DNA from: a virus
Lineage: Duplodnaviria > Heunggongvirae > Uroviricota > Caudoviricetes
DNA length: 7,256 bases
Strand: one strand, 5' to 3'
IMG/VR virus record: IMGVR_UViG_3300011952_000021
Position 1 is the first letter of the stretch, and each line of letters begins with the position of its first letter. Below the pieces are notes generated by a model that saw nothing but the letters and a program-made list of their open reading frames with translations, was not told the origin of the DNA and ran no database searches. Made by a program: the position numbers and the translations under genes. Positions 1-7,256 of this stretch are shown piece after piece.

Positions 1-180
1 ATATTCGTCATAAACTTTGGGATCATACTGAAGCTCCCCGCCAGATGCCTCCTGTAGACGCATCGCGCGACCTTCAGGAACCAGTATCCCCCAAGCAGCA
101 ACACTTGCCAGTCTCACTCCTGCGGCATTGGCAAGCTTTGTTTTGCTGCCAAAAAAAGTAATTGCGTCAACTTTAAGCAT
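1..180 (-). CDS. dicC: Cro/DicC-like small HTH regulator, N-terminal 60 codons only; ORF runs off the window start
   Basis: Reverse complement of 1-180 is stop-free from an ATG (complement of 178-180): MLKVDAITFFGSKTKLANAAGVRLASVAAWGILVPEGRAMRLQEASGGELQYDPKVYDEY. It has an HTH-like core (SKTKLANAAGVRLASVAAW) and an SD AGAGGGGG (complement of 186-193) 5 nt before the ATG. It is divergent from the DicA-family repressor, as dicC is from dicA. Absent from the ORF track only because it is truncated by the window edge. Confidence 0.6.
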   Translation of the reverse strand, partial: MLKVDAITFFGSKTKLANAAGVRLASVAAWGILVPEGRAMRLQEASGGELQYDPKVYDEY

Positions 181-193
181 CAAAGCCCCCTCT

Positions 194-211
194 TGTTAGA
201 CTTTTCTAACA
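194..211. promoter_or_regulatory. Operator-like palindrome O1 (TGTTAGA-CTTT-TCTAACA) in the divergent promoter region between the dicC-like and dicA-like genes
   Basis: Perfect 7-bp inverted repeat with 4-bp spacer, read directly. The same half-sites recur at 704-723 and, degenerate, at 741-758. Its position between two divergent HTH regulator genes is typical of an immunity-region operator. Confidence 0.5.
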
Positions 212-260
212 TTATTGTGCGCGGGATACCTAAGTCAAGAAAAATTAGAATTACCTAACT

Positions 261-668
261 ATGGATACAAGAACCCTAGGCCAGCGAGTTCTGGCGCGAC
301 GAAAAGAATTACGCTTAACACAACGAGAAGCTGCGCGCCTCGCTGGAGTTGCTCACGTCACAATTTCACAATGGGAAAGAGACGAAACCCAGCCAGTCGG
401 AAAACGATTGTTTGCTTTAGCGGATGCTCTGAAGTGCTCACCTACATGGCTAATGTTTGGTGACGAAGACAAGGCACCAGTGCCTGCACAAGAACTTCAT
501 GTGGAAACAGAGCTAACTCCCAACCACAAAGAATTGATCGAATTATTCGATGCTCTTCCATCTTCCGAGCAGGAAGCCTTGCTGTCTGAAATGCGCGCAA
601 GAGTAGAAAACTTCAACAAACTCTTCGAAGAAATGCTTAAAGCGCGTAAAAATAAATCAATAAAATAA
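261..668 (+). CDS. dicA: DicA-family (XRE/cI-type HTH) prophage repressor, 135 aa
   Basis: ORF track 261..668. N-terminal HTH_XRE signature (LTQREAARLAGVAHVTISQWERDETQP). The segments KRLFALADALKCSPTWLMFGDEDK and LIELFDALPSSEQEALLSEMRARVENFNKLFEEMLKARK closely resemble E. coli DicA as I recall it, which is also 135 aa; I judge this a diverged paralog, not an identical copy. No SD precedes the ATG; a -10-like TAGAAT sits at 246-251, so the mRNA may be leaderless. Confidence 0.85.
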   Translation: MDTRTLGQRVLARRKELRLTQREAARLAGVAHVTISQWERDETQPVGKRLFALADALKCSPTWLMFGDEDKAPVPAQELHVETELTPNHKELIELFDALPSSEQEALLSEMRARVENFNKLFEEMLKARKNKSIK

Positions 669-703
669 CATTCTTTTCAAGTGATTAGTTGCGCCCACTC
701 TTT

Positions 704-723
704 TTGTTAGATCAATCTAACAA
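704..723. promoter_or_regulatory. Operator-like palindrome O2 (TTGTTAGA-TCAA-TCTAACAA) downstream of the repressor gene, upstream of the small-gene operon
   Basis: Perfect 8-bp inverted repeat with 4-bp spacer; same half-site as O1 at 194-211. Confidence 0.5.
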
Positions 724-730
724 AAAACAC

Positions 731-759
731 TTGCCTCTCGTGTTAGGTTATTCTAAATT
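731..759 (+). promoter_or_regulatory. Candidate sigma70 promoter for the downstream operon (-35 TTGCCT 731-736, 17-bp spacer, -10 TAAATT 754-759), overlapped by degenerate operator O3 (741-758)
   Basis: Hexamers match consensus 4/6 each with 17-bp spacing. O3 (TGTTAGG-TTAT-TCTAAAT) lies in the spacer and -10, the arrangement expected for a repressible promoter. Weak motif evidence only. Confidence 0.3.
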
Positions 760-836
760 ACTTTCCATCAAGACACCGCACGGTGTTCTCAGCAAACAGT
801 TCCGCGACCCCGGCGTTAAGGGGAAATGAGGTCAGC

Positions 837-992
837 ATGGATACTATCGATCTTGGCAACAGCGAATCTCTGGTATGTGGCGTGTTCCCCAACCAGGACG
901 GTACGTTCACCGCGATGACATATACCAAAAGCAAAACGTTTAAAACCGAAAATGGTGCCCGTCGCTGGCTGGAAAGAAACTCAGGTGAGTGA
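837..992 (+). CDS. ydfA: Small prophage protein, 51 aa, YdfA/YdaF-like (DUF-type hypothetical)
   Basis: ATG at 837 with SD GAGGT at 828-832. Product MDTIDLGNSESLVCGVFPNQDGTFTAMTYTKSKTFKTENGARRWLERNSGE is exactly 51 aa, the length of Qin YdfA, and sits first after the dicA-like gene as ydfA does. The track ORF 783..992 is the same frame with an upstream start that lacks an SD. Confidence 0.6.
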   Translation: MDTIDLGNSESLVCGVFPNQDGTFTAMTYTKSKTFKTENGARRWLERNSGE

Positions 993-993
993 T

Positions 994-1569
994 ATGGATT
1001 TCGACACAATCATGGAAAAGGCTTACGAAGAATACTTCGAAGGTCTTGCCGAAGGCGAAGAAGCTCTCAGCTTCAGTGAGTTTAAACAGGCACTCAGAAT
1101 AAGAATGTGCTCTCACAATGACGCGGAGCACAAATATGAGAAGCAAAATCAGACCGCAGAAAATTTTGTTCTGGAACCCGGAGAAACGCTTTTCAAAATT
1201 CCCGTTACGTGCCCCATTTGCGGTTTTACATCAGAAGAACTTGACGACTCCTGTAACAATCAGGAAACAACCAAGTATGTCGAAGATGATACCGAGTGCG
1301 CACGAAGAACGATTATATCCACGAGTCCAAACTCCAGGACCAATAAATCTCACTTTGAGAGGGTGATTAATCCACTCCCCCAAACCAATAAAAAAGATGC
1401 CGGAGGACAAAAAACCCAATGGAACAACGGGATATCTGTCAAAAAAAGACGTTCCATTAAAGACAAACAACGCAGCGCCAACAACTGTAAGCGCTTTATA
1501 CCAGTAATCAATTTTCATGTTCTTAAGCGGATTTATTGGTGGTTGCGACATTGCTTAATGAATCCTTAA
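994..1569 (+). CDS. Hypothetical protein with YdfB-like N-terminus (MDFDTIMEKAYEEYFEGLAEGEE...) and a CPICG motif; C-terminal extent uncertain
   Basis: ATG 994 lies 1 nt after the ydfA-like TGA (990-992), preceded by AGGTGA at 984-989, so the two genes look translationally coupled. Same frame as track ORF 952..1569. The frame is open to 1569, but the last ~110 codons are K/R/N/Q-rich low complexity and are codon-aligned antisense to a membrane-like ORF (1231..1551, -), so only one of the two may be real there. Confidence 0.45.
   Translation: MDFDTIMEKAYEEYFEGLAEGEEALSFSEFKQALRIRMCSHNDAEHKYEKQNQTAENFVLEPGETLFKIPVTCPICGFTSEELDDSCNNQETTKYVEDDTECARRTIISTSPNSRTNKSHFERVINPLPQTNKKDAGGQKTQWNNGISVKKRRSIKDKQRSANNCKRFIPVINFHVLKRIYWWLRHCLMNP
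1231..1551 (-). CDS. Possible small membrane protein (106 aa, about three predicted TM helices), possibly a truncated SieB-like superinfection-exclusion protein
   Basis: Track ORF 1231..1551 (-) has three hydrophobic stretches (ALTVVGAALFVF, GFLSSGIFFIGLG, ALGIIFDILGCFLIVTGVV). An AAGGA SD lies 11 nt upstream of the ATG. In Rac-type prophages a membrane sieB gene lies antisense between the small early genes and kilR. It could instead be a shadow ORF of the + strand ORF 994..1569, which shares its codon boundaries. Confidence 0.3.
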   Translation of the reverse strand: MSQPPINPLKNMKIDYWYKALTVVGAALFVFNGTSFFDRYPVVPLGFLSSGIFFIGLGEWINHPLKVRFIGPGVWTRGYNRSSCALGIIFDILGCFLIVTGVVKFF

Positions 1570-1590
1570 AACTGTGGTGATTTTAAGGAT
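1562..1590. other. Perfect 10-bp stem / 9-nt loop hairpin (ATCCTTAAAA-CTGTGGTGA-TTTTAAGGAT)
   Basis: Read directly. It contains the TAA stop (1567-1569) of the + ORF and the SD-like AAGGA of the minus-strand membrane ORF. No U-tract follows on + strand, so it is not a canonical intrinsic terminator. Confidence 0.35.
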
Positions 1591-1828
1591 ACCACCTCGC
1601 CTGACGTGGTTAAAAGCAGGCACACAACACGAAAGCGCACGGCGAAGTTCGTCTCACTGTACGGTGTCGTTAAATTTAATTCGACCGTGCGCTTCCGGTT
1701 GTGGCAACCCGCGAAATGGCGCGGCGGTAAGTATGGCGGGGTTATTCCTTCCCCGTTGAGGACACCGGGTTGTCAGGTTGACCATACGCTTAAGTGACAA
1801 CCCCGCTGCAACGCCCTCTGTTATCAAT

Positions 1829-1886
1829 TTTCTGGTGACGTTTAGCGGTATCAGTTTTACTCCGTGACTGCTCTGCCGCCGTTTTT
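1829..1886 (+). ncRNA. dicF: DicF-like antisense sRNA (ftsZ translation inhibitor) with 3' hairpin and U-tract
   Basis: TTTCTGGTGACGTTTAGCGGTATCAGTTTTACTCCGTGACTGCTCTGCCGCCGTTTTT matches the 53-nt E. coli DicF sequence as I recall it, with 1-2 substitutions. It ends in a GC-rich stem plus TTTTT (1882-1886) and lies inside the operon downstream of the ydfA/ydfB-like genes, as dicF does in Qin. Confidence 0.75.
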
Positions 1887-2060
1887 AAAGTGAATTTTGT
1901 GATGCGGTGAATGCGGCTGAGCGCACGCGGAACAGTTAAAACCAAAAACAGTGTTATGGGTGGATTCTCTGTATCCGACGTTAATTGTTAACTGGTTAAC
2001 GTCACCTGGAGGCACCAGGCACCGCATCAACAAAGTTCATTTGTAAAAATGGAGATAATT

Positions 2061-2282
2061 ATGATTGCACATCACTTCGGAACTGATGAAATACCACGTC
2101 AGTGTGTGACTCCTGGCGATTATGTTCTTCATGAAGGCCGGACATATATTGCCTCGGCAAACAATATTAAAAAGCGAAAACTATATATTCGTAACCTGAC
2201 CACAAAAACATGCATTACTGACCGCATGATTAAAGTCTTCCTCGGTCGTGATGGTTTACCTGTAAAGGCGGAGTCATGGTGA
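2061..2282 (+). CDS. kilR: KilR-like small protein, 73 aa (putative FtsZ/cell-division inhibitor)
   Basis: ATG 2061 with SD GGAGA at 2051-2055 (track ORF 2049..2282, same frame). The 73-aa length and the position immediately upstream of the ydaE-like, racC-like and recE-like genes reproduce the Rac order kilR-ydaE-racC-recE. Identification rests on synteny and length, not verified by alignment. Confidence 0.6.
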
Positions 2283-2452
2283 TGACTAAGAAAATAAAAT
2301 GTGCTTACCACCTTTGCAAAAAAGACGTTGAAGAAAGCAAAGCTATTGAAAGAATGCTTCACTTCATGCACGGGATTTTATCAAAAGACGAACCGAGAAA
2401 ATATTGCAGTGAAGCTTGTGCCGAAAAAGACCAGATGGCACATGAACTTTAA
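2282..2452 (+). CDS. ydaE: Small Cys-rich (putative zinc-binding) protein, 56 aa, YdaE-like
   Basis: Not in the ORF track (under 60 aa). ATG 2282-2284 overlaps the kilR-like TGA (2280-2282) in the string ATGGTGATGA. Product [56 protein letters not shown] has Cys pairs CxxxxC and CxxxC; stop TAA 2450-2452. The 56-aa length and position match Rac YdaE. An alternative in-frame ATG lies at 2276. Confidence 0.5.
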   Translation: MTKKIKCAYHLCKKDVEESKAIERMLHFMHGILSKDEPRKYCSEACAEKDQMAHEL

Positions 2453-2526
2453 TTAATTGACTATTCGAAACTGAATTTATGCCAGAAATGGCAGGTATTC
2501 GCTCAACCTTAATTAAGGAGAAAAAC

Positions 2527-2802
2527 ATGATTACCAATTATGAATCCACTGTTGTAACTACCGATGACATTGTTCACGAGGTGAATCTGGAAGGAAAGCG
2601 CATTGGCTACGTAATTAAAACAGAAAATAAAGAAACCCCATTCACTGTGGTTGATATCGATGGTCCATCAGGCAACGTAAAAACACTTGATGAAGGTGTC
2701 AAAAAAATGTGCCTGGTGCATATCGGAAAGAATCTGCCCGCAGAAAAAAAAGCCGAATTTCTGGCAACTCTAATTGCAATGAAATTAAAAGGTGAAATCT
2801 GA
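2527..2802 (+). CDS. racC: RacC-like hypothetical protein, 91 aa
   Basis: ATG 2527 preceded by a strong SD AAGGAG (2515-2520). Same frame as track ORF 2479..2802, whose upstream start lacks an SD. Length 91 aa and position immediately upstream of the recE-like gene match Rac racC. Confidence 0.65.
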   Translation: MITNYESTVVTTDDIVHEVNLEGKRIGYVIKTENKETPFTVVDIDGPSGNVKTLDEGVKKMCLVHIGKNLPAEKKAEFLATLIAMKLKGEI

Positions 2803-2807
2803 AAGAA

Positions 2808-2832
2808 ATAGCCTGCGTATGGCGCAGGCTAT
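2808..2832 (+). terminator. Stem-loop 5 nt after the racC-like stop (10-bp perfect stem ATAGCCTGCG / CGCAGGCTAT, 5-nt loop); no U-tract
   Basis: Inverted repeat read directly. The following sequence GAACAGTG is not U-rich, so this is at best a weak terminator or an RNA processing/stability element. Confidence 0.25.
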
Positions 2833-2903
2833 GAACAGTGTGTATCCGGCAAGATCATTCACTGAACAAAACGAATTTTAATCTGAGTTGAGGTTAAAAA
2901 ACA

Positions 2904-5518
2904 ATGAGCACAAAACCACTCTTCCTGTTACGGAAAGCGAAAAAATCATCCGGTGAACCTGACGTCGTCCTGTGGGCAAGTGACGATTTTGAATCGACCT
3001 GTGCCACTCTGGACTACCTGATCGTTAAGTCAGGTAAAAAACTGAGCAGCTATTTTAAAGCTGTTGCCACGAATTTTCCTGTCGTTAATGACCTGCCCGC
3101 TGAAGGTGAGATCGATTTTACCTGGAGTGAACGCTATCAACTCAGCAAAGACTCCATGACATGGGAACTAAAACCGGGAGCAGCACCAGACAACGCTCAC
3201 TATCAAGGCAATACCAACGTCAACGGCGAAGACATGACTGAGATTGAGGAGAATATGCTACTCCCAATTTCTGGCCAGGAACTGCCCATTCGTTGGCTTG
3301 CTCAACACGGCAGCGAAAAACCGGTAACGCACGTTTCACGCGACGGACTCCAGGCATTACACATTGCTCGGGCTGAAGAACTACCGGCTGTTACTGCCCT
3401 GGCTGTTTCCCACAAAACCAGCCTGCTCGACCCGCTGGAAATTCGCGAACTCCACAAACTNNNNNNNNNNGGTTCGTGACACTGACAAAGTTTTCCCTAA
3501 TCCTGGTAATTCAAACCTGGGACTGATAACTGCTTTTTTCGAAGCATACCTGAACGCTGACTACACCGATCGAGGACTGCTGACAAAAGAGTGGATGAAG
3601 GGTAATCGTGTTTCACACATCACTCGCACGGCTTCCGGTGCTAATGCTGGCGGCGGAAACCTCACCGATCGCGGCGAAAGTTTCGTACACGATCTGACGT
3701 CACTGGCGCGCGACGTAGCCACTGGCGTACTGGCCCGTTCAATGGACGTGGACATCTATAACCTTCATCCGGCACACGCTAAACGCATTGAGGAAATTAT
3801 CGCTGAAAATAAACCGCCCTTTTCTGTTTTCCGCGACAAATTCATCACCATGCCTGGCGGGCTGGATTATTCCCGCGCCATCGTGGTTGCGTCCGTAAAA
3901 GAAGCACCAATTGGGATCGAGGTCATCCCCGCGCACGTCACTGAATATCTGAACAAAGTACTGACTGAAACCGATCATGCCAACCCTGATCCGGAAATCG
4001 TGGATATTGCCTGCGGTCGCTCCTCTGCCCCGATGCCGCAGCGAGTAACAGAAGAAGGAAAACAGGATGATGAAGAAAAACCGCAACCATCTGGAACAAC
4101 GGCAGTTGAACAGGGAGAGGCTGAAACAATGGAACCGGACGCAACTGAACATCATCAGGACACGCAGCCGCTGGATGCTCAGTCACAGGTAAATTCTGTT
4201 GATGCGAAATATCAGGAACTGCGGGCAGAACTCCATGAAGCCCGGAAAAACATTCCATCAAAAAATCCTGTCGATGCCGATAAATTGCTTGCTGCATCAC
4301 GTGGTGAATTTGTTGACGGAATTAGCGACCCGAACGATCCGAAATGGGTGAAGGGGATTGAAACCCGCGATTCAGTGAACCAGAACCAGCAAGAAACGGA
4401 ACAGAACGACCAGAAAGCGGAACAAAACAGCCCAAATGCGTTACAAAACGAGCCAGAAACGAAACAACCTGAGCCAGTAGCGCAACAGGAAGCGGAAAAA
4501 ATCTGCACCGCCTACGGTCAGACCGGCGGCGGCAACTGCCCTGAATGTGGTGCGNNNNNNNNNNCGGACCGATCCGAAATGGGTAAAGGGGATCCAGTCT
4601 CGCGATTGTGTGTACCAGAACCAGCCAGAAACGGAAAAAACCAGCCCAGATATGAATCAACCTGAGCCAGTAGTGCAACAGGAACCGGAAATAGCCTGCA
4701 ATGCCTGCGGCCAGACTGGCGGGGATAACTGCCCTGACTGTGGTGCGGTGATGGGCGACGCAACATACCAGGAAACATTCGCTGAAGAGAGTCAGGTTGA
4801 AGCTAAGGAAAATGATCCGGAGGAAATGGAAGGCGCTGAACATCCGCACAATGAGAATGCTGGCAGCGATCCGCATCGCGATTGCAGTGATGAAACTGGC
4901 GAAGTCGCAGATCCCGTAATCGTAGAAGACCTAGAGACAGTTATCACATCCACCAGCAGGACGTGTGACCATCTAATGATCGACCTTGAAACCATGGGAA
5001 AAAATCCTGATGCCCCGATTATCTCAATAGGCGCAATATTTTTCGATCCACAAACCGGAGATATGGGACCGGAATTTAGCAAGACCATAGATCTGAATAC
5101 TGCTGGCGGAGTCATTGATCGTGACGTCATTAAATGGTGGCTGAAGCAATCACGTGAAGCGCAGTCTGCCATTATGACCGATGAAATCCCGTTAGATGAT
5201 GCACTGTTACAATTGCGGGAATTTATCGACGAAAACTCCGGTGAATTTTTTGTTCAGGTCTGGGGAAATGGAGCCAACTTCGACAACACGATTTTGCGCC
5301 GTTCATACGAACGGCAGGGGATCCCCTGCCCGTGGCGTTACTACAACGATCGCGATGTACGCACAATCGTTGAGCTGGGGAAAGCCATAGACTTCGATGC
5401 CAGAACGGCTATTCCATTCGAAGGTGAGCGGCATAATGCACTTGATGACGCCCGTTACCAGGCAAAATACGTTTCAGTTATCTGGCAAAAACTGATCCCG
5501 AGTCAGGCTGATTCTTAA
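2904..5518 (+). CDS. recE: RecE-like (exodeoxyribonuclease VIII family N-terminal region) protein, about 868 aa, with a C-terminal DEDDh/DnaQ-like 3'-5' exonuclease domain; reading frame broken by two 10-N runs
   Basis: Track ORFs 2904..3479, 3364..4665 and 4547..5518 are consecutive pieces in frames 0, +1, +2, each switching exactly at an N run; with the N runs removed they join in frame (..ELHK-L-VRDTDK.. and ..CPECGA-RTDPKW..). The N-terminus [29 protein letters not shown].. matches E. coli RecE as I recall it. C-terminal domain motifs: Exo I MIDLETMG (~4981), Exo [13 protein letters not shown] (~5265), Exo [16 protein letters not shown] (~5433). SD GAGG sits about 10 nt upstream of ATG 2904. 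Confidence 0.85.
3461..3470. other. Run of 10 N (assembly/scaffold spacer) inside the recE-like CDS
   Basis: Literal n x10. Flanking codons are only in frame if the true gap length is a multiple of 3, including 0. Confidence 0.95.
4336..4747 (+). repeat. Two diverged tandem in-frame copies of a 59-73 aa unit ([30 protein letters not shown]) inside the recE-like CDS, separated by the second N run
   Basis: Copy 1 at 4336-4554 (73 aa), copy 2 at 4571-4747 (59 aa). Both begin GATCCGAAATGGGT.AAGGGGAT and end CCTGA.TGTGGTGCG. Each carries a C-x2-C ... C-P-x-C-G zinc-ribbon-like Cys pattern. Confidence 0.8.
4555..4564. other. Run of 10 N (assembly/scaffold spacer) at the junction of the two tandem repeat copies
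   Basis: Literal n x10. Frame is restored if the true gap is a multiple of 3. Its placement exactly between repeat copies suggests a repeat-induced assembly break. Confidence 0.95.
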
Positions 5519-5590
5519 TGTTCAACTGTCGCCGGTTGTGACTGGTATTCTGCAACCGGCGCTCGTCTGATGTAAGAGATAAAGAAATCG

Positions 5591-5842
5591 ATGAGCGAAG
5601 TAATCATGATTGTCTCTCCCGGCAAATGGGTATCCGAAGAGCAGTTAATTGCGCTGAAAGGAATAAAAAAAGGTACGTTAAAAAAGGCCCGGGAAAAATC
5701 GTTTATGGAAGGAAGGGAATATAAGCATGTCGCTCATGACGGTATGCCATGGGATAACAGTCCATGCTTTTACAACCTGGAAGAAATTGATCGCTGGATT
5801 GAGCGCCAGGCATCAGCGAGACCAAGACGTCATCTTACTTGA
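5591..5842 (+). CDS. Excisionase-like small DNA-binding protein (Xis family), 83 aa
   Basis: Track ORF 5591..5842, immediately upstream of and co-oriented with the integrase (19-34 nt gap). The GREYKHVAHDG segment resembles the lambda Xis REYLFHESA region. The start is uncertain: ATG 5591 has a weak SD and ATG 5606 is an alternative. Confidence 0.65.
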   Translation: MSEVIMIVSPGKWVSEEQLIALKGIKKGTLKKAREKSFMEGREYKHVAHDGMPWDNSPCFYNLEEIDRWIERQASARPRRHLT

Positions 5843-5876
5843 CTAAAAGCCACACTAACTAATGAGAGAGGTTGAA

Positions 5877-7157
5877 ATGAAATATCCGACAGGCGTGGAA
5901 AACCATGGAGGGAAATTACGTATCTGGTTTGTTTATAAAGGCGTAAGAGTCAGGGAAAATCTGGGGGTTCCTGACACAGCAAAAAACAGGCGCGTTGCAG
6001 GTGAACTACGCGCCTCTGTTTGTTACGCAATAAAAACTGGTGTTTTCGACTATGCAAAACAGTTTCCCTCCTCACGCAATCTGGAAAAATTTGGTGAGGC
6101 CCGACAAGATTTAACCATAAAAGAACTGGCTGAAAAATTTCTGGCACTGAAAGAAACTGAAGTCGCCAAAACATCACTCAACACATACCGTGCCGTCATC
6201 AAAAATATCCTGAGCATAATCGGTGAAAAAAATCTTGCCTCATCGATTAATAAAGAAAAATTACTGGAGGTTCGTAAAGAGCTACTGACTGGATACCAGA
6301 TCCCCAAAAGTAACTATATTGTTACACAACCAGGGAGATCGGCTGTAACTGTAAATAATTACATGACAAATCTTAACGCCGTGTTCCAGTTTGGTGTTGA
6401 TAACGGTTACCTGCCAGATAATCCGTTTAAGGGGATCTCGCCATTAAAGGAATCAAGAACCATTCCGGATCCTCTTTCGCGGGAGGAATTTATCCGTCTT
6501 ATCGATGCGTGCAGAAATCAGCAAGCAAAAAATTTATGGTGTGTTTCTGTTTATACTGGCGTTCGCCCTGGTGAGCTGTGTGCACTTGGATGGGAGGACA
6601 TAGATCTGAAAAATGGAACAATGATGATCAGGAGAAATTTAGCAAAAGACCGTTTCACGGTACCAAAAACACAGGCGGGAACCAATCGGGTCATTCATCT
6701 TATTAAGCCAGCAATCGACGCTCTCCGGAGTCAGATGACATTAACGAGACTGAGCAAAGAGCATATCATTGATGTTCACCTCAGAGAGTATGGCAGAACA
6801 GAAAAACAAAAATGCACCTTTGTTTTTCAACCTGAAGTGTCAGCGAGAGTAAAAAATTATGGTGACCATTTTACCGTTGACTCAATAAGGCAGATGTGGG
6901 ACGCAGCGATAAAACGTGCCGGACTCCGCCATCGAAAATCATATCAGTCGAGACATACTTATGCCTGCTGGTCGCTGACAGCTGGTGCTAACCCGGCATT
7001 TATAGCAAACCAGATGGGCCATGCAGATGCGCAAATGGTATTTCAGGTATACGGAAAATGGATGTCTGAAAACAATAATGCACAGGTAGCTTTGTTAAAT
7101 ACACAGTTAAGCGAGTTTGCCCCAACCATGCCCCATAACGAAGCAATGAAAAATTAA
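5877..7157 (+). CDS. Lambda-family tyrosine integrase (site-specific recombinase, phage integrase family) with N-terminal arm-binding-type domain
   Basis: Track ORF 5862..7157; the preferred start is ATG 5877 (MKYPTG..) because SD GAGAGAGG lies at 5864-5871. C-terminal catalytic signature: R in VYTGVRPGE, then HRKSYQSRHTYACW (H-x-x-R/H box) and GHADAQMVFQVYGKW (His plus Tyr nucleophile). The xis-int order with int at the element edge is the lambda-like arrangement. Confidence 0.95.
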   Translation: MKYPTGVENHGGKLRIWFVYKGVRVRENLGVPDTAKNRRVAGELRASVCYAIKTGVFDYAKQFPSSRNLEKFGEARQDLTIKELAEKFLALKETEVAKTSLNTYRAVIKNILSIIGEKNLASSINKEKLLEVRKELLTGYQIPKSNYIVTQPGRSAVTVNNYMTNLNAVFQFGVDNGYLPDNPFKGISPLKESRTIPDPLSREEFIRLIDACRNQQAKNLWCVSVYTGVRPGELCALGWEDIDLKNGTMMIRRNLAKDRFTVPKTQAGTNRVIHLIKPAIDALRSQMTLTRLSKEHIIDVHLREYGRTEKQKCTFVFQPEVSARVKNYGDHFTVDSIRQMWDAAIKRAGLRHRKSYQSRHTYACWSLTAGANPAFIANQMGHADAQMVFQVYGKWMSENNNAQVALLNTQLSEFAPTMPHNEAMKN

Positions 7158-7158
7158 T

Positions 7159-7254
7159 TTAATATTTATCAAATAGTTGACACGTATGACTCTTGAAATC
7201 CATAAATTCAAGCGCAGTGCCCAGCCATCCCGATACTGCTGCTTTCACCAAATC
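7159..7254 (-). CDS. Possible 3' end of a convergent gene (host gene or att-restored terminus), last 31 codons only
   Basis: The reverse strand is stop-free from the window end to a TAA (complement of 7159-7161) just 2 nt beyond the integrase stop: ..DLVKAAVSGWLGTALEFMDFKSHTCQLFDKY*. It is very short and partial, and frame choice is uncertain because another reverse frame also reads ..GFGESSSIGMAGHCA*. Confidence 0.2.
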   Translation of the reverse strand, partial: DLVKAAVSGWLGTALEFMDFKSHTCQLFDKY

Positions 7255-7256
7255 CT

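Follow-up and report, generated by a model that had tools for sequence, protein, structure and literature searches.

A Rac-type kilR cassette downstream of DicF in the early-left region of a Qin-like prophage sequence

The window, the whole 7,256-nucleotide stretch of viral DNA analysed here, begins with an immunity region and ends with an excisionase and integrase; between them lie a small DUF1391 gene, the sRNA DicF, the division inhibitor gene kilR and a hybrid exonuclease gene (Table 1). A helix-turn-helix repressor gene stands divergent from a Cro-like gene with a putative operator at both promoters, which is the layout of a DicA/DicC-type switch. The Cro-like gene is partial, running off the start of the window, and is annotated as a Cro/CI family member in a matching Qin-type prophage locus (L001). 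The exact repressor protein is present on at least 1000 contigs, and positions 550–1094 are 84% identical to the K-12 dicA-ydfA-ydfB region. A pattern search for the operator palindrome returned two matches where 0.03 were expected. In K-12, DicA represses dicBp (PMC10448788); by analogy, the window repressor would bind both palindromes, and with the divergent Cro-like gene would constitute an immunity switch. Qin-type immunity had been proposed for this region in an earlier note made from the sequence alone. The DicA-family repressor is indeed there, but its specificity probably differs from that of DicA because the two are only 57% identical.

Table 1. Features of the window, with strand and supporting evidence
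Feature	Position	Strand	Evidence
dicC-like (Cro-type) regulator gene, 5' part	1–180	-	82% identical to K-12 DicC residues 1–61; PHROG 409 transcriptional regulator
Operator-like palindrome TTGTTAGA-N4-TCTAACA, dicC/dicA divergent promoter region	193–212		Pattern search
DicA-family (CI-like) repressor gene, 135 aa	261–668	+	HTH_3 1.5e-14; 57% identical to K-12 DicA
Second copy of operator palindrome, perfect, upstream of ydfA (dicBp-equivalent early-left promoter region)	704–723		Pattern search
ydfA (DUF1391), 51 aa	837–992	+	DUF1391 8.8e-28; 96% identical to YdfA, 86% to Rac YdaF
ydfB-like, first 34 codons	994–1095	+	100% identical to YdfB residues 1–34 only
Segment in place of K-12 ydfB 3' end and ydfC	1096–1611		Without K-12 homology; 99.8% identical in HannyBb
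Conserved non-coding DicF leader (precursor region)	1612–1829	+	93.6% identical to K-12
DicF sRNA with intrinsic terminator hairpin	1830–1881	+	RF00039, 64.8 bits (gathering cut-off 48), E 6.9e-13
Conserved linker / 5' UTR common to dicB and kilR loci	1882–2060	+	Alignment; informative sites
kilR, 73 aa, FtsZ (and MreB) inhibitor of Rac	2061–2282	+	72/73 identical to K-12 KilR (98.6%)
ydaE, 56 aa, zinc-binding protein	2282–2452	+	100% identical to K-12 YdaE
racC, 91 aa	2527–2802	+	98.9% identical to K-12 RacC; PHROG 4778
Hybrid exonuclease gene	2904–5518	+	RecE N-terminal part fused to DnaQ-like Rv2179c-type 3'-5' exonuclease domain
Excisionase gene (DUF1233)	5591–5842	+	PF06806 1.6e-31
Tyrosine integrase gene, Qin-type, beside ynfP/rspB attachment side	5862–7157	+	Arm-DNA-bind_2 and Phage_integrase

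The Qin-like gene order noticed earlier (dicC-like, dicA-like, a 51-codon ydfA-like gene, ydfB-like, DicF) is present in full, with ydfB truncated to 34 codons. Beyond that point the ydfB frame diverges and runs through unrelated sequence to 1569; ydfC is absent, and RefSeq annotates the homologous gene as a partial ydfB pseudogene. The replacing segment carries overlapping uncharacterised ORFs, one on the plus strand (952–1569; PHROG 35040, unknown function) and one on the minus strand (1231–1551), for which no PHROG match was found.

DicF had been predicted at 1829–1886, and a covariance-model search places it within one nucleotide of that start, matching the full model (positions 1–52). Two substitutions set it apart from K-12 DicF, namely C52G and G15A, the latter at the base of the terminator stem, while nucleotides 16–51, including UACUCC, are identical. 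A hairpin followed by TTTTT (1845–1886) forms an intrinsic terminator. [quoted passage not shown] When window DicF was scored against the ftsZ leader with RNAduplex, the result did not discriminate: 19 of 500 shuffled sequences scored at least as well, and KilS, the sRNA of K-12 Rac, behaved similarly.

Upstream of DicF, the interval 1570–1828 holds no conserved ORF, in agreement with the earlier reading of it as non-coding. A 63-codon frame at 1606–1797 does match PHROG 8854, but in-frame stops or 1-nt indels break it in most of the 25 distinct homologues, K-12 included, and it was therefore rejected as coding. Across the same homologues the leader is near-invariant from about 1685, and too invariant for covariation to support or reject the structure that Alifold predicts. 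This prediction is of a strongly structured RNA with a long stem (1633–1645/1683–1694) ending about 137 nt upstream of DicF. In K-12, RNase III generates a 190-nt and RNase E a 53-nt DicF species (PMC10448788). The leader matches in sequence the K-12 precursor that the two enzymes cut to DicF, and the predicted stem fits the RNase III site yielding the 190-nt form.

The linker that follows DicF is conserved across the dicF-dicB locus of Qin, the kilS-kilR locus of K-12 Rac, the dicF-kil locus of O157 Rac and phage Evi; its match to STnc100, at 38.3 bits, is sub-threshold. The next gene, previously described as KilR-like, is kilR. Its product differs from K-12 KilR by the single change F51C, leaving intact the C-terminal 12 residues, which are needed for activity of a protein that inhibits FtsZ and MreB (PMC12482147). 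A Pfam scan of the window returned nothing for KilR, and the assignment was settled by identity to K-12 and by PHROG 294 ('Kil protein', E 1.4e-35), which it matches over its full length; proteins identical to it carry PF27398, and matching genomes annotate kilR. Near-identity to a characterised protein suggests that window KilR would inhibit the FtsZ ring and cause filamentation. By correspondence with K-12, ydaE starts at 2282 and not at 2276; the start of racC lies at 2527 and not at 2479. Comparison of the small ORFs with Rac and Qin proteins thus recovered the genes named beforehand, at or near their proposed positions.

Parent painting and informative-site analysis were used to map the mosaic, and resolve the window into five alternating blocks, each matching, at approximately 100% identity, one or other of two common prophage types. 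Positions 1–2000 are identical at all variable sites to the Qin-type prophage of locus L001, situated at the rspB/ynfP site, and the left arm proposed as Qin-like is 99.85% identical over 1–2041 to a Qin-like prophage. The right end (5998–7256) is 99.4% identical to K-12 intQ-ynfP, such that an intQ-type integrase lies beside ynfP/rspB as in K-12 Qin. From 2019 to approximately 4312 the sequence is instead approximately 100% K-12/O26 Rac, identical to O26 Rac from 2019 at informative sites, and bears out the proposal that Rac-type genes (kilR-ydaE-racC-recE') occupy the place of dicB. The switch falls at 2001–2018, an 18-bp identical stretch within the conserved linker of about 180 nt. No tblastn match to DicB, YdfD or YdfC was found in the window, which in this respect departs from a K-12-type Qin. 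Nor does it qualify as Rac, typified by IntR/XisR at ttcA and by recT and ralR/ralA downstream of recE: RecT and XisR had no match in the window, and RalA was absent from its Rfam scan. Taken together, the region is probably the early-left (pL-equivalent, 'dicBp') operon of a Qin-family lambdoid prophage at the ynfP/rspB site, encoding DicF and then KilR. The kilR-ydaE-racC-recE' cassette would have taken the place of dicB-ydfD-exo' by recombination with a Rac-type prophage, the left crossover falling in the conserved linker found ahead of dicB and kilR alike. All of the parts were known already, and are known modules reshuffled in the usual lambdoid manner.

The exonuclease gene raises the question of whether this exchange occurred in a bacterium or during assembly. 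Two runs of 10 Ns (3461–3470 and 4555–4564) interrupt it, both of them pure insertions. The RecE portion aligns over residues 1–599 at 90–99% identity to K-12 RecE, with the first ~1.4 kb of recE approximately 100% identical to Rac. Pfam detects PF06630 (Exonuc_VIII N-domain) and PF16473 (Rv2179c-like 3'-5' exonuclease), and did not find PF12684/DUF3799, the C-terminal nuclease domain of ordinary RecE (residues ~600–866 in K-12 RecE), so the product does not classify as RecE exonuclease VIII. A Zn-ribbon-like module that is single-copy in K-12 RecE, the Qin-type exonuclease and O157 RecE is duplicated here, its Qin and Rac alleles lying in tandem on either side of the second N-run. Since two N-runs accompany five alternating blocks, the mosaic may in part have arisen in scaffolding, and the window looks like a draft scaffold. 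Contigs of an ordinary Qin-type prophage (DicF-dicB-ydfD-exonuclease) and an ordinary Rac prophage (KilS-kilR-ydaE-racC-recE-recT) of one genome, being paralogous, could have been misjoined, an explanation that we consider plausible if somewhat doubtful. Several searches favour it. The exact Qin-backbone/Rac-cassette junctions occur in 0 of 5,426 complete E. coli genomes, and exact look-ups found neither the N-free 864-aa hybrid protein, among 15 billion proteins, nor the N-containing 191-aa ORF. Among the matches listed, the identical integrase adjoins rspB in 9 of 10 contexts and is accompanied by dicB in all 10, while the identical RacC allele occurs on three contigs, all of them ordinary Rac; no second copy of the mosaic was found among these integrase and RacC-allele contexts, which are exclusively ordinary Qin-type (dicB) or ordinary Rac.

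Several features of the sequence itself nevertheless argue against misjoining. The DicF/kilR switch lies within uninterrupted sequence, and the bases beside two junctions match neither parent. Parental identity extends over only 18 bp at the DicF/kilR switch, and over 14 bp and ~3 bp at the other switches, too short for the usual k-mer graph misjoins. Deleting both N-runs restores a single stop-free frame of 864 codons. In addition, an independent metagenome contig (L009, 2.4x coverage) joins the same two parent types at another crossover, 1882–1918, though this contig could itself be chimeric. Lastly, DicF-kil junctions of the same structure are present in complete genomes.

Indeed, the rarity that the earlier note implied for the DicF-kil pairing does not hold, as this is a common natural arrangement. 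DicF lies directly upstream of kil in at least 134 of 5,426 complete E. coli genomes, for example in the Rac-type prophages of O157:H7 and O145:H28, as well as in phage Evi and 32 IMG/VR contigs (34 contigs when IMG/VR and metagenomes are combined). At the kil-adjacent loci of the complete O157:H7 and 2009C_3689 genomes and of phage Evi, DicF scores 75–76 bits, and the Evi-type loci share local linker sequence with the window. The pattern DicF-N(185-205)-kilR had no match in GTDB species representatives. These data raise a tentative interpretation, that the STnc100-like linker acts as a recombination joint across which prophages swap an 'sRNA slot' (DicF or KilS) and a 'protein slot' (DicB or KilR) independently; read in this way, four of four slot combinations occur in nature. 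Were it true, the window and contig L009 would have arisen recently and independently of each other, by Qin x Rac exchanges with crossovers at different points of the linker, which could take place between co-resident prophages through their own RecE/RecT-type functions acting on very short homologies.

Co-transcription of DicF and KilR, DicF processing and the division phenotypes at this locus are modelled on experiments in K-12. We infer that, once the DicA-like repressor is lifted, a single transcript would span ydfA, ydfB', leader, DicF, linker, kilR, ydaE, racC, exonuclease, xis and int, as supported by the two operator-like palindromes and the K-12 data. RNase III would cut within the long leader stem to release the ~190-nt precursor, RNase E would set the 5' end of the 53-nt DicF and the intrinsic terminator its 3' end, whilst KilR would be made by polymerases reading through that terminator. 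DicF would pair with ftsZ mRNA to repress its translation, and KilR would block assembly of the Z-ring and, at higher levels, MreB; division would therefore be hit at both the RNA and the protein level. The double division block proposed in the earlier note is already a feature of Qin, with DicB as its protein component. In K-12, the transcripts comprise ydfABC-dicF and the read-through ydfABC-dicFB-ydfD, with no internal promoter (PMC10448788).

The junction might also be real without co-regulation, if intrinsic termination and Rho-dependent termination in the linker stopped most transcripts and KilR were silent or expressed under a signal of its own, as has been described for kilR of K-12 Rac. 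We regard this as unlikely, notwithstanding that the hairpin and U-run ending DicF could insulate kilR. In K-12 a 1,146-nt ydfABC-dicF RNA dominates, and the longer RNA containing dicB was seen only upon inactivation of RNase E (PMC10448788); kilR of K-12 Rac is repressed via Rho/NusG and induced via OxyS (PMC12482147), and KilS may possess its own promoter (PMC8175672). Conversely, expression of DicB in Qin starts at dicBp and passes the same terminator and a homologous linker, and derepression of Qin by Rem leads to DicB-dependent filamentation (PMC10448788). Moreover, no sigma-70 consensus promoter was found on the plus strand between ydfA and kilR, including 1882–2060, and the terminator stem of window DicF is slightly weaker than that of K-12, having an A-C mismatch at its base (-14.5 versus -15.9 kcal/mol).

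The locus adds little new biology: DicF and its processing, KilR and the DicA-type switch have all been characterised before, and DicF-kil prophages are frequent among pathogenic E. coli. A real junction would be a clear instance of two resident cryptic prophages having recently recombined across ~18 bp of identity, creating a strain in which the partner of DicF is a dual FtsZ/MreB inhibitor and not the MinC activator DicB.

Comparison with known systems places the window between two families. It shares with K-12 Qin (dicC/dicA, ydfA-ydfB-ydfC-dicF-dicB-ydfD-ydfE-intQ) the chromosomal site, the order cro-like gene, repressor, ydfA, ydfB, leader, DicF and linker (leader, DicF and linker together being 93.6% identical), and the coupling of an sRNA to a small protein that both block division, DicF and DicB in Qin. 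Unlike K-12 Qin, it has no dicB, ydfD or ydfC, its repressor has diverged from DicA, a 517-bp unrelated segment replaces the ydfB 3' end and ydfC, and its integrase is intact (431 aa) where intQ is a pseudogene. The Rac-type prophages of O157:H7, O145:H28 and 2009C_3689 at ttcA, and phage Evi, share with the window the functional DicF-kil arrangement, the leader and linker, and the presence of an HTH repressor and DUF1391 gene; they are 90–97% identical to the window and have other repressors. The three Rac-type prophages differ from the window in carrying a full recE-recT-ralR-xisR-intR at ttcA, and Evi in having a DnaQ-like exonuclease directly after kil. In the Rac prophages of K-12 and O26:H11 (racR ... 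ydaF, sieB, kilS, kilR, ydaE, racC, recE, recT), kilR-ydaE-racC is approximately 100% identical to the window and the linker past the sRNA terminator is homologous, with KilS in K-12 Rac filling the slot upstream of kilR where the window and Qin have DicF. In contrast to the window, these prophages carry sieB on the opposite strand, a RecE with the nuclease domain, and recT, and Rac IntR is only 43% identical to the window integrase. The window backbone, including the 1095–1611 segment, recurs in Escherichia phage HannyBb (PP925841; 98.8% identical over 753–2041) and in the Qin-like prophage of WP2-W18-ESBL-08 (99.85% over 1–2041). Both have the same excisionase and 1,296-bp integrase gene; in place of the Rac cassette they carry dicB-ydfD with an 823-aa YdfE-type exonuclease. 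Homologous and syntenic, the early-left operons of Qin and Rac are built on one plan, which runs from the repressor through a DUF1391 gene, an sRNA, the conserved linker and a small division inhibitor to recombination genes; within it, the inhibitors, RNA and protein alike, are interchangeable cassettes.

The window's sequence joins Qin-type immunity genes and DicF to Rac-type kilR-ydaE-racC-recE, as the earlier note had observed. The covariance match to DicF, the tblastn comparison of each ORF with K-12 proteins and the PHROGs assignment confirm the parts it named, and comparison with both parents bears out the mosaic. The gene calls also hold overall, except that ydaE and racC begin at other codons and ydfB is truncated. 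YdfC, DicB and YdfD have no tblastn match within the window. In place of the 3' end of K-12 ydfB and ydfC lies a 517-bp segment (1095-1611) with overlapping ORFs on both strands: a plus-strand ORF overlapping it (952-1569, 205 aa) is called as a gene in most cases, and a minus-strand ORF (1231-1551, 106 aa) has three hydrophobic stretches and the position and orientation of sieB in Rac.

Features and parental blocks of the window
Feature	Position	Strand	Match
dicC-like gene	1-180	-	82% identical to DicC over 61 residues; partial, cut by window edge
DicA-like repressor	261-668		57% identical to DicA; HTH_3
YdfA	837-992		96% identical; DUF1391
YdfB, residues 1-34 only	994-1095		100% identical
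DicF	1830-1881	+	Rfam, full model, 64.8 bits (gathering score 48)
KilR	2061-2282		72/73 identical to K-12; PHROGs 'Kil protein for bacterial septation inhibition', 1.4e-35
YdaE	2282-2452		100% identical
RacC	2527-2802		98.9% identical
RecE			residues 1-599 only matched
Excisionase	5591-5842
Integrase, 431 aa	5862-7157
Block	1-2000		Qin-type
Block	2019 to ~4312		Rac
Block	~4328-4554		Qin-type
Ten Ns	4555-4564
Block	4565 to ~4940		Rac
Block	~4941-7256		Qin-type

Painting against a Qin-type prophage locus and the Rac prophage yields five alternating blocks, each ~100% identical to one parent. Site by site, all variable sites up to 2000 are those of the Qin-type locus and from 2019 on those of O26 Rac; the switch falls within an 18-bp stretch common to both parents, part of the linker (the ~180 nt from the sRNA terminator to the small protein's start codon). 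The best left-arm megablast matches in complete E. coli genomes end at 2041 and are Qin-like prophages, in which dicB, ydfD, the gene for an 823-aa exonuclease, xis and int come after DicF and adjoin rspB; over 1900-3400 the window matches, at 97.9%, Rac prophages whose annotation reads kilR-ydaE-racC-recE. The prophage lies at the Qin site, since 5998-7256 is 99.4% identical to K-12 intQ-ynfP.

The exonuclease gene (2904-5518) holds two runs of exactly ten Ns, the first at 3461-3470 between adjacent recE bases. Both are pure insertions, and the second splits a Qin-allele copy from a Rac-allele copy of one 'PKWVKGI...CxxCG' module, which every reference examined (K-12 RecE, the Qin-type exonuclease, O157 RecE) contains just once. 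With the Ns deleted, one open 864-codon ORF results, whose product combines the Exonuc_VIII N-domain of RecE (PF06630) with a DnaQ-like Rv2179c-type 3'-5' exonuclease (PF16473); lacking recT and the nuclease domain of RecE, the locus would not encode a RecET recombination system. The window may be a chimeric draft scaffold, its mosaic the product of misjoined parts, as the N-runs and the doubled module suggest. The same is suggested by the absence of its junctions from complete genomes (in 5,426 complete E. coli genomes, megablast reaches 80% coverage of neither 1-2900 nor the entire window at any place), by the absence of the 864-aa hybrid from 15 billion proteins, and by the presence of dicB in every context of the identical integrase. 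However, parental identity at the switches is merely 18, 14 and ~3 bp, certain junction bases match neither parent, and deleting the Ns reopens a frame. Moreover, gut-metagenome contig L009, 98.1% identical to the window over 753-3796, joins the same parents independently with a crossover at 1882-1918, although this low-coverage contig could be chimeric too. We lean towards a genuine DicF-kilR junction in the window.

DicF is the sole above-threshold family in the Rfam scan. Its residues 16-51, among them the stretch with experimentally demonstrated pairing to the ftsZ RBS (PMC5069750), are the same as in K-12. Two substitutions distinguish it: G15A (window 1844) gives the terminator stem an A-C mismatch at its base, and C52G (window 1881) lies just past the stem. 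The 99.9%-identical Qin-like prophages have this allele too, but it is rare in the other collected DicF copies (1/39). The proposal that the sequence upstream is a precursor leader gains support from homology to an experimentally characterised K-12 region: 1612-1829 and the K-12 ydfC-dicF interval share 93.6% identity, and from ~1685 to DicF it is near-invariant in 25 distinct homologues, exceeding the adjacent kil gene in conservation. RNAalifold, on this near-invariant alignment, predicts a strongly structured RNA with a long stem (1633-1645/1683-1694) around a variable hairpin. In K-12, RNase III yields a 190-nt DicF species whose 5' end lies ~137 nt upstream of that of the 53-nt form, which is made by RNase E, and a search for a promoter within the operon gave none (PMC10448788); the equivalent point in the window, ~1693, falls on the 3' arm of the stem predicted here. 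A 63-codon frame (1606-1797) matches a PHROG of unknown function; a coding role was rejected because stops or 1-nt indels break it in most homologues, including K-12.

K-12 Qin (dicF-dicB), K-12 and O26 Rac (kilR), O157 Rac and phage Evi all have the linker in conserved form, and 1872-2068 of the window gives a full-length, sub-threshold Rfam match to STnc100 (38.3 bits, gathering score 47, E 1.9e-6). The slot held by DicF in the window is occupied upstream of kilR in K-12 Rac (L007 7906-8003) by the annotated sRNA KilS (PMC8175672); KilS and DicF have the terminator hairpin and linker in common and diverge 5' of the hairpin. In one complete genome, that of E. coli TUM1880, dicB follows a KilS-like sequence; with DicF-dicB, DicF-kilR and KilS-kilR, all four sRNA/protein combinations therefore exist. 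In this early-left operon of TUM1880, an inserted relB/relE-type toxin-antitoxin pair also separates the repressor gene from the DUF1391 gene (L042 1527-1998).

The palindrome TTGTTAGA-N4-TCTAACA occurs with one mismatch at 193-212, between the dicC-like and dicA-like genes, and perfectly at 704-723, upstream of ydfA (two in the window, 0.03 expected). By analogy with DicA, this fits a single repressor acting over the switch and the early-left promoter. No consensus plus-strand promoter was found from ydfA to kilR. In K-12, ydfABC-dicF and ydfABC-dicFB-ydfD transcripts are detected, and antirepressor induction causes filamentation dependent on DicF and DicB (PMC10448788); KilR blocks Z-rings and, at higher dose, MreB (PMC12482147). 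Derepression of the window's locus would, by the same analogy, produce a single transcript through DicF into kilR, with DicF pairing to ftsZ and KilR inhibiting Z-rings and MreB. Contexts of the identical 431-aa integrase (L044-L053) share one ydfA-DicF-dicB-exonuclease arm and carry at least three different repressors (174-aa Peptidase_S24, 135-aa HTH and 152-aa HTH types), which indicates immunity-region swapping on a single backbone.

DicF followed by KilR is not unusual. Many complete genomes span 1780-2300 end to end at 96-97%, and a query built so that 80% coverage needs both the DicF leader and kilR is matched in at least 134 complete E. coli genomes. An exact-pattern scan recovered the order in 32 IMG/VR and two metagenome contigs, three of them with a window-like immunity region over 1-1091/1094 (L020 and L036 at 97-98%, L033 at 93%). 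The mosaic is what lambdoid modular exchange routinely yields, its components are well studied, and its interest is hence low. Whether or not the window's own junction is genuine, the arrangement is so in other, complete genomes: O157:H7 strain 7.1_Anguil and E. coli strain 2009C_3689 carry DicF (75 bits) then kil in a Rac-type prophage at ttcA, ordered HTH repressor, DUF1391 gene, DicF, kil, ydaE, racC-like, recE, recT, ralR, xisR and intR, and phage Evi likewise has DicF (76 bits) then kil.
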